DNA of 64,000 nucleotides. It comes from Alphaproteobacteria bacterium. Lineage in GTDB: Bacteria > Pseudomonadota > Alphaproteobacteria > CAAHEQ01 > UBA3637. The stretch spans positions 7,152 to 71,151 of the forward strand of contig JAGCYU010000004.1 of assembly GCA_017960645.1 (NCBI GenBank), read 5' to 3'. The position numbers were made by a program, and so were the translations under genes. Position 1 is the stretch's first letter, and each line of letters begins with the position of its first letter. Shown in pieces: positions 61,057-61,942 of this stretch. The notes under the pieces are model-generated. The model was not told where the DNA came from. It made no database searches and saw only the letters and a program-made list of their open reading frames with translations.

Positions 61057-61323
61057 ATGACAAACGAAGAAAACAGAGCTAAAGAAAGAAAAAAATTATT
61101 AATGTATGCACAATTGTTCCGTTTTGGAAGCTATGCATCTATGGGATTGTCTTTGTTAGGATCGCTTGCTGTTATTAGCGCCGCGATTCATGGTAAATCA
61201 GGTAAAGAGGTAGTGGGATATTTGTTAGGGACTTTTATTGCTACCGCTCTTGCTGAGACTTGTCTTGATGCCAGGTTCTGTATTGCCGCTAAAATAAGAG
61301 GGCATGATAAAGGCATATACTGA
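61057..61323 (+). CDS. small two-TM membrane protein (88 aa)
   Basis: Strong promoter and RBS. Basic N-terminus followed by two hydrophobic helices separated by HGKSGKE. Its stop overlaps the next ATG (TGATG). Confidence 0.55.
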   Translation: MTNEENRAKERKKLLMYAQLFRFGSYASMGLSLLGSLAVISAAIHGKSGKEVVGYLLGTFIATALAETCLDARFCIAAKIRGHDKGIY

Positions 61324-61676
61324 TGCCAAATGGTGAAACGCGTTTGGTGTTAAAGTTGAAAAAACATTTGTCACCTGTTAAAGTGGCTGTAATTCCTTTG
61401 AAGCGCAATAATGAACAGATTGTTACTTTGGCGCACCAGATCAAAGAGGATTTATTAAAAACAGGTATCGGGCGAGTTATGTTGGAAGATTCTGGCAATA
61501 TCGGCAAGGCCTATCGTCGTCATGATGAAATTGGTACCCCAATTTGCATTACTGTGGATTTTGAATCTATTGAGCAAAGCCCTGCAACAGTTACTTTGCG
61601 TAACCGTGACACGATGGCACAGGAACGTGTAGCTGTGGCTGATTTGCCAAAATATTTAAAAGAATTCTTTCTGTAA
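61323..61676 (+). CDS. free-standing paralogue of the GlyRS C-terminal anticodon-binding domain (117 aa)
   Basis: ATG-initiated. About 99% amino-acid identity to GlyQS residues ~338-453, while about a quarter of codons differ synonymously. Translationally coupled to the upstream ORF. Confidence 0.6.
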   Translation: MPNGETRLVLKLKKHLSPVKVAVIPLKRNNEQIVTLAHQIKEDLLKTGIGRVMLEDSGNIGKAYRRHDEIGTPICITVDFESIEQSPATVTLRNRDTMAQERVAVADLPKYLKEFFL

Positions 61677-61696
61677 AAAAATTGTAAGGGATTGAT

Positions 61697-61942
61697 ATGT
61701 CGAAAAAAAATGCAAATAATCGATTGGTTAAGAATTTATATCTTGCCAATAAAATATGTGTAGCTATGGCTTTATTAGCCTGGGTCGGCGCTGCTGTTGG
61801 TTTTACTAAAGGACATGAAAAATCTGCAAAACTAGCTCTTTTAGGTGCGGTTGGTTGTTCAGTTGTTGGTACAGCTTGTGCTTTTAGTGCAGATAGGGCT
61901 GATATTTTAAGGAAAAAACGCAAATGCCAAGGGCGTGGATAA
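61697..61942 (+). CDS. small two-TM membrane protein (81 aa), paralogue of the 61057 ORF
   Basis: Same architecture as the 61057 ORF, with a shared KS.K...G.LLG...A..C pattern. The upstream nonamer TGTAAGGGA is also shared with the 61057 ORF's upstream region. Confidence 0.5.
   Translation: MSKKNANNRLVKNLYLANKICVAMALLAWVGAAVGFTKGHEKSAKLALLGAVGCSVVGTACAFSADRADILRKKRKCQGRG

Follow-up and report, generated by a model that had tools for sequence, protein, structure and literature searches.

Class II holins and pinholins are two-helix proteins with a basic C-terminal tail and small-residue packing; type I toxins usually have fewer than 60 amino acids (aa), a single helix and a partner small RNA that is antisense to the toxin gene or overlaps it. 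These are the described proteins nearest in shape to p88 and p81, two small predicted membrane proteins encoded in a 64,000-nucleotide (nt) stretch (the window; positions 7,152 to 71,151 of contig JAGCYU010000004.1, Alphaproteobacteria bacterium). Their genes bracket ABD', a free-standing copy of the anticodon-binding domain (ABD) of glycyl-tRNA synthetase (GlyRS), and the three genes form a cassette downstream of glyS. Described free-standing proteins derived from aminoacyl-tRNA synthetases (aaRSs) include the YbaK/ProX/AlaX editing domains, HisZ and YadB/Glu-Q-RS, and in passages of a review on aaRS duplication the paralogues are either modules for catalysis or editing or copies of a synthetase without the ABD; an ABD on its own is not described in those passages (PMC9437257).

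As with class II holins and pinholins as generally known (phage 21 S21; literature lead PMC7312051), p88 and p81 have about 70-90 aa, two predicted transmembrane (TM) helices, a predicted cytoplasmic basic C-terminal tail and small-residue motifs, but they lack a profile match, a phage context, an endolysin or spanin and a dual-start motif, and they flank an aaRS domain gene. Like small inner-membrane proteins and type I toxins, they are short, hydrophobic, lineage-restricted and easily missed, with termini that follow the positive-inside pattern; unlike type I toxins, they have two helices, no credible antisense promoter and a soluble tRNA-binding operon partner. The second helix of p81 and the end of its first helix carry GxxxG/A-type repeats as found in glycine-zipper modules, and p81 gives a match of 15.7 bits to the glycine-zipper family NF053611 (YiaD_Gzip_OmpA), which is far below the cut-off of 175; unlike the glycine-zipper families, it has no Pfam zipper match, lipobox, signal peptide or OmpA-like domain. 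ABD' resembles the free-standing aaRS-derived domains in being a synthetase piece retained as a gene of its own under purifying selection, and differs from the other aaRS-derived paralogues in those review passages in being a class IIa ABD alone, confined to one species and predicted to be co-transcribed with two orphan hairpins.

The reading favoured here, which we consider about equally likely to hold or to fail, is that p88 and p81 are real small hairpin proteins of the inner membrane which are co-expressed and made together with ABD', and that they are not holins. Each protein would be inserted in the inner membrane as a helical hairpin, with the basic termini in the cytoplasm and a loop of 7-9 residues in the periplasm, and the Gly/Ala/Ser-rich helices would suit tight packing or oligomerisation. 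The hairpins would be co-produced with ABD' and act with it rather than as autonomous lysis proteins, and they might anchor, gate or modulate this tRNA(Gly)-anticodon-binding module at the membrane.

The cassette and its anticodon-binding-domain copy

The three genes lie on the plus strand in the order p88, ABD' and p81, between glyS and a GGDEF gene. The features of the region are as follows.

59558-60919, plus strand: glyS, dimeric glyQS-type glycine-tRNA ligase of 453 aa (Pfam tRNA-synt_2b and HGTP_anticodon)
60927-60937, plus strand: left copy of the exact 11-mer TTTTCTTGACA, one of the two that flank the cassette
60935-60971, plus strand: intrinsic terminator of glyS, a GC-rich hairpin followed by a U-tract
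60978-60994, no strand assigned: perfect 8+1+8 palindrome TTTGTCTT-T-AAGACAAA, a self-inverted match and candidate regulator-binding site
60999-61027, plus strand: predicted sigma70-type promoter, TTGACA, 17-nt spacer and TG-extended TATAAT
61045-61050, plus strand: p88 Shine-Dalgarno (SD) box AAGGAG, 6 nt 5' of the ATG, read from the sequence
61057-61323, plus strand: p88, an 88-aa orphan, predicted two-helix hairpin with both ends inside (N-in/C-in)
61323-61676, plus strand: ABD', 117 aa, free-standing copy of the GlyRS ABD (Pfam HGTP_anticodon)
61686-61691, plus strand: SD-like AAGGGA of p81, 5 nt 5' of the ATG, read from the sequence
61697-61942, plus strand: p81, an 81-aa orphan, predicted N-in/C-in two-helix hairpin with many small-xxx-small motifs
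61960-61997, plus strand: intrinsic cassette terminator from a terminator scan (-17.2 kcal/mol, z = -6.0)
62004-62014, plus strand: right copy of TTTTCTTGACA, which doubles as the -35 region of the GGDEF gene

This anatomy reads as one compact operon, with a consensus promoter at the start and an intrinsic terminator at the end. The promoter matches the consensus at 12/12 positions with the upstream TG and is the top-scoring site of the scanned 4.5 kb, while the leader of p88 (61030-61075) is predicted to be nearly unstructured (-1.8 kcal/mol). The stop codon of p88 and the ATG of ABD' overlap (TGATG), which suggests matched production of the two proteins, and p81 follows ABD' after 20 nt. From this overlap, the common promoter and the common terminator, we infer joint production of the hairpins with ABD' and a joint function; the physical or functional link, like the biological role, is thus deduced from the layout of the genes. 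An earlier note on this DNA had described the two open reading frames (ORFs) bracketing a 117-aa HGTP_anticodon ORF on the same strand, the perfect promoter and the AAGGAG ribosome-binding site, all of which were recovered at the positions listed, and its expectation of high expression fits the predicted signals, namely the consensus promoter, good SD sites, open leader, start/stop overlap and terminator.

ABD' is a near-complete match to Pfam PF03129 HGTP_anticodon (3e-23, 82.2 bits where the cut-off is 21, profile positions 1-93 of 94) and shares 90.7% nt identity with the last 354 nt of glyS (60566-60919), while the proteins are 99% identical. The copies differ in 29 codons, 28 of them synonymously and one non-synonymously (A17S), which gives a synonymous divergence (dS) of 0.54, a non-synonymous divergence (dN) of 0.007 and a dN/dS of 0.014, as against 0.025-0.041 in the orthologue comparison. 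Since this ratio is at or below the orthologue range, the free domain has been retained by strong purifying selection with a near-parental protein, and the dS of 0.54 implies that the cassette is not brand new. The homology starts at most about 4 nt from the start codon of ABD', where a TTG has become the new ATG, and stops a few nt past its stop codon. As these bounds match the domain, the duplication is domain-precise, with the small genes outside it.

With the closest relative found as the outgroup (ABD 93% identical), the duplication is placed after the species split (dS 0.54 versus 0.89 and 1.36). Among the sites that differ between the copies, the outgroup agrees with glyS at 19, with ABD' at 11 and with neither at 2, so that both copies have changed since the duplication. 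The selection on ABD' is the best indication that the operon has a function, and it is the reason for not dismissing p88 and p81, whose interest lies mainly in sharing an operon with a free-standing GlyRS domain under selection.

The glyS gene itself has orthologues of 62-86% identity in 80 metagenome-assembled genomes (MAGs) of gut or rumen Alphaproteobacteria, and its terminator has a fold energy of -19.7 kcal/mol (z = -3.6), a stability reached by 0/200 shuffles. The two copies of TTTTCTTGACA are the only ones in the whole window and bracket the segment from the glyS terminator through the cassette terminator; they could be the footprint of an insertion or of microhomology, or merely two similar -35 regions. 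The palindrome occurs once in the window, with its 3' end 4 nt before the -35 hexamer, and may serve as an operator or activator site.

An exact 10-mer, ACTTTTGTGG, also has two copies in the window (59502-59511 and 61012-61021), each within a promoter spacer. One belongs to the glyS promoter (TTGACT-17-TATAAT, 59499-59527) and the other to the cassette promoter, which may mean that glyS and the cassette are co-regulated or have a common ancestry, or may be chance.

Coding potential and predicted membrane architecture of p88 and p81

Judging from length, SD boxes, codon usage and the age of the cassette, p88 and p81 are probably real genes. When each gap is shuffled, about 0.5% of the shuffles contain a plus-strand ORF as long as the observed one or longer, and an SD box stands at canonical spacing before each. 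In a codon-usage log-odds model built from 31 long ORFs in the window, the in-frame values are 0.197 for p88 and 0.286 for p81, compared with 0.32 +/- 0.10 for known coding chunks and -0.51 +/- 0.21 for off-frame chunks, none of which reached the value of p88 or p81. Simulated neutral copies of p88 or p81 were still open in 3-5% of cases at 0.27 substitutions per site (half of the divergence of the ABD copies), a figure which presumes that the small ORFs are coeval with the ABD duplication.

These figures bear directly on the alternative that p88 and p81 are incidental open frames or proto-genes flanking a selected ABD copy, which would at most be barely functional and, if translated at all, would have no role under selection. 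The two proteins are strict orphans in a single species, the variation between strains is too small to show constraint, a hydrophobic character is common among newly arisen ORFs, and newly emerging yeast ORFs are reported to be enriched in TM segments (PMC7005711). Against this, the 88- and 81-codon frames each fill their gap on the operon strand at a chance of about 0.5% each, each has a properly spaced SD box, p88 is precisely coupled to ABD', codon usage is within the coding range, the DNA is not unusually T-rich, and neutral survival, if coeval with the duplication, is 3-5% for each. The alternative is considered possible, although rather unlikely. Should it apply, the locus would still represent a tidy case in which part of a gene, precisely one domain, was duplicated and orphan genes lie on either side, of local interest only given its confinement to a single uncultured species.

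A T-rich de novo origin was rejected in view of the ordinary T content of the p88 and p81 DNA, as was a programmed frameshift joining p88 to ABD', since no slippery heptamer is present at GGC ATA TAC TGA.

A contig from a second sample is 99.984% identical over 12.7 kb, with 2/12,678 nt differing. Both differences fall within ABD', at window positions 61478 and 61486 (L085 10156 and 10164), 8 nt apart; one is silent and the other is E55G, and neither equals the glyS copy. They may represent genuine polymorphism or stem from misassembly of a repeated region.

The favoured reading of p88 and p81 as membrane hairpins draws on an architecture that the two proteins share, as the earlier note had observed: a basic end, a helix, a short charged loop (HGKSGKE in p88, KGHEKSAK in p81), a second helix and a basic tail, with net positive N- and C-termini in both. 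The TM helices which that note assumed appear as two hydrophobic segments per protein, at about residues 24-44 and 52-70 of p88 and 20-36 and 46-65 of p81, where the Kyte-Doolittle 19-residue means of the four segments are 1.64-1.87. Gly, Ala and Ser make up about 31% of each protein, and the helices are packed with small-xxx-small motifs. AlphaFold2 (AF2) models from single sequences likewise give a hairpin for p88 (H3-44/H49-84, pLDDT 74.5) and for p81 (H3-37/H43-77, pLDDT 67). Because the hydrophobicity is moderate and the simple Hessa sums are positive (+1.7 to +2.9 kcal/mol), membrane insertion is likely, not certain, and an N-in/C-in topology is predicted by positive-inside reasoning. 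A search of the PDB with both models returned only generic helical hairpins (E >= 0.86); SerRS coiled-coil arms, which appeared among the fold relatives at a probability of about 0.2, were judged meaningless.

Several points weigh against the favoured reading. Besides the positive Hessa sums, the loops of both proteins are net positive, which makes membrane insertion less than certain, and the AF2 models have moderate confidence and single-sequence input. Expression and translation of p88 and p81 are deduced from sequence signals alone, their link with ABD' is drawn from operon structure only, and the neutral-survival figure depends on the presumed coevality. With 2/12,678 nt differing between strains and no homologues available, selection on p88 and p81 themselves is unreadable. 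Finally, one antisense frame over p81 also scores as coding-like (0.253). The corresponding 129-aa antisense ORF (61591-61980) was rejected as a real gene and is treated as a shadow ORF, since it overlaps ABD' by 86 nt and has no SD box and no family match.

Ancestry and distribution of the two orphans

The earlier note regarded p88 and p81 as paralogues of about 30% identity with a conserved G.LLG...A..C pattern, which were duplicated as a unit with the ABD. This view was not sustained by the comparisons. BLASTP gave no alignment between the two proteins at E<=100, Smith-Waterman scores were at chance (z = 0.28 against full shuffles, -0.6 against segment-preserving shuffles), and phmmer --max against the 554 ORFs of the window gave E = 6-8, equal to random ORFs. 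The best global alignment contains about 20 identities in 94 columns, with controls equally good. Of the proposed pattern, only LLG is shared: p88 has GYLLG, while p81 has LALLG without the matching A..C spacing. A simple tandem duplication should have left homologous DNA 3' of both ABD copies. The flanks of the ABD copies (60920-61322 and 61677-62079), however, show no DNA similarity (local z = -0.17, global z = 0.35), whereas the ABD copies themselves score 289 under the same scheme as a positive control; the small genes were thus not found to belong to a duplicated unit.

It is nevertheless conceivable that p88 and p81 are true paralogues, which arose by tandem duplication of an ABD together with its downstream small gene, the small genes having evolved fast while the ABDs remained constant or were gene-converted. 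An ABD copy stands immediately 5' of each small gene, the two proteins are nearly alike in length, helix boundaries and charge layout, and a global alignment of the coding sequences gives z = 2.5 against dinucleotide shuffles, which shared A-rich ends could explain. The common secondary-structure architecture, however, is necessary and insufficient for paralogy, the protein comparisons found no similarity, and the 403-nt flanks are dissimilar although the synonymous sites of the ABDs are still about 62% identical. Furthermore, p88 is preceded by 137 nt containing a terminator and a promoter, as against 20 nt before p81, and the duplication is younger than the divergence from the nearest relative (dS 0.54 versus 0.89-1.36), therefore leaving little time for erasing all similarity. 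Common descent is accordingly held to be very improbable, and p88 and p81 are best described as alike in architecture, with no detectable shared ancestry.

Both proteins are lineage-restricted orphans of a single species of gut or rumen Alphaproteobacteria. A word-indexed search of 5.8 billion proteins returned only the self matches of p88 and p81 (NCBI MBP5343657 and MBP5343659, from a MAG of an Alphaproteobacteria bacterium), and an exhaustive HMMER search of 1.84 billion representatives with p88 likewise returned only itself. No family match was found in Pfam (E<=10) or NCBIfam, PHROGs gave only families of unknown function (E >= 0.009), none of them a holin family, and the anti-phage defence models of PADLOC gave no match for p88, ABD' or p81 at E<=10. 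Relatives were also absent from phage and plasmid records (tblastn) and from viral and metagenome contigs, and blastn and tblastx detected no DNA source of p88 or p81 elsewhere in the window or in related loci. The homologues in a well-characterised housekeeping family which the earlier note had considered were therefore not encountered, nor was any other homologue in the databases searched. Seven contigs carry the proteins with identical neighbours, and at least two samples assembled independently contain an identical cassette.

At 80 related glyS loci, no second ABD and no relative of p88 or p81 was found. In the closest relative found, glyS is followed by a terminator and then an unrelated gene, without the cassette, and as synteny around glyS is not conserved among the relatives, no empty site is definable. 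About 120 short HGTP_anticodon proteins were listed, of which four (P0004, P0050, P0089 and P0126) were examined as candidate free-standing ABDs; they proved to be a contig-end fragment or pieces of a split glyS, the splits of P0050 and P0089 being attributed to long-read frameshift errors, and being fragments they were rejected as evidence of a wider family. In two long assemblies, glyS is called as a catalytic-domain ORF and an adjacent ABD ORF (L083 3399-4384 and L084 2936-4456), a split put down to frameshift errors, and one of these has a Pilon suffix in its record name. Such split calls can mimic free-standing ABDs in protein databases.

Possible roles and features upstream of glyS

The earlier note also suggested that the two proteins act as holin-like or toxin-like proteins, in which case the hairpins would oligomerise via their small-residue faces into depolarising or lysing pores, with a repressor at the palindrome restraining expression. 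Both are of a suitable size and have two hydrophobic helices, a highly basic tail at the C-terminus and motifs of the small-xxx-small or glycine-zipper-like kind, which agrees with this suggestion, as does the perfect palindrome abutting the -35 hexamer as a possible operator. The two TM helices and charged C-terminal tail of a class II holin are present by prediction, while neither a family match nor a position in a lysis cassette beside an endolysin was found. No phage, viral or plasmid relatives, PHROG holin family or other family matches were detected, and no endolysin, spanin or antitoxin gene or strong antisense promoter is located nearby. The neighbouring genes instead encode housekeeping proteins (MlaA, MlaC, GlyRS, GGDEF, RarA-type AAA, RluD-type pseudouridine synthase and AsmA). 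The antisense RNA with its own promoter that characterises type I toxin-antitoxin systems was likewise not found: the only promoter-like site on the minus strand of the cassette scores 9/12 (61677-61649), which is at background level, and Rfam has no match in the window. A consensus promoter, a strong SD box and an open leader would also be an odd carriage for an unneutralised toxin. Since the family, phage-context and partner-gene searches were all empty, nothing beyond the generic shape speaks for this suggestion, and it is regarded as improbable.

The preferred reading of p88 and p81 as membrane hairpins made with ABD' can be extended to a hitherto undescribed three-part device, where the two unrelated hairpins would recruit or gate the free tRNA(Gly) ABD at the inner membrane. 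Such a device might sequester tRNA(Gly) or protect the anticodon loop of this tRNA, which could for instance confer immunity to an anticodon nuclease or to a toxin directed at GlyRS, or it might tune the supply of glycyl-tRNA under a signal sensed through the palindrome. This extension is very unlikely to be correct. If, as in the preferred reading itself, the hairpins are real and act with ABD', the ABD of a synthetase would here persist as a gene of its own that is linked to membrane proteins, an arrangement that we have not found described, and the locus would lend itself to studying how small orphan membrane proteins come to share an operon with part of an essential gene.

Upstream of glyS, a 14-bp hairpin GGGGAGATTGGTTATAATCTCCCC with a T-run (59506-59537) overlaps the -10 hexamer of the glyS promoter and was flagged as terminator-like by the scan; it may act as the terminator of the upstream 109-aa gene or in the regulation of glyS. 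This 109-aa ORF (59157-59486), which is without a Pfam match, lies between mlaC and glyS. Its N-terminus resembles a signal peptide and ends in ...SGAGC, which is lipobox-like; the protein has six further cysteines (seven in total) and is predicted to be another uncharacterised small envelope protein of this neighbourhood.

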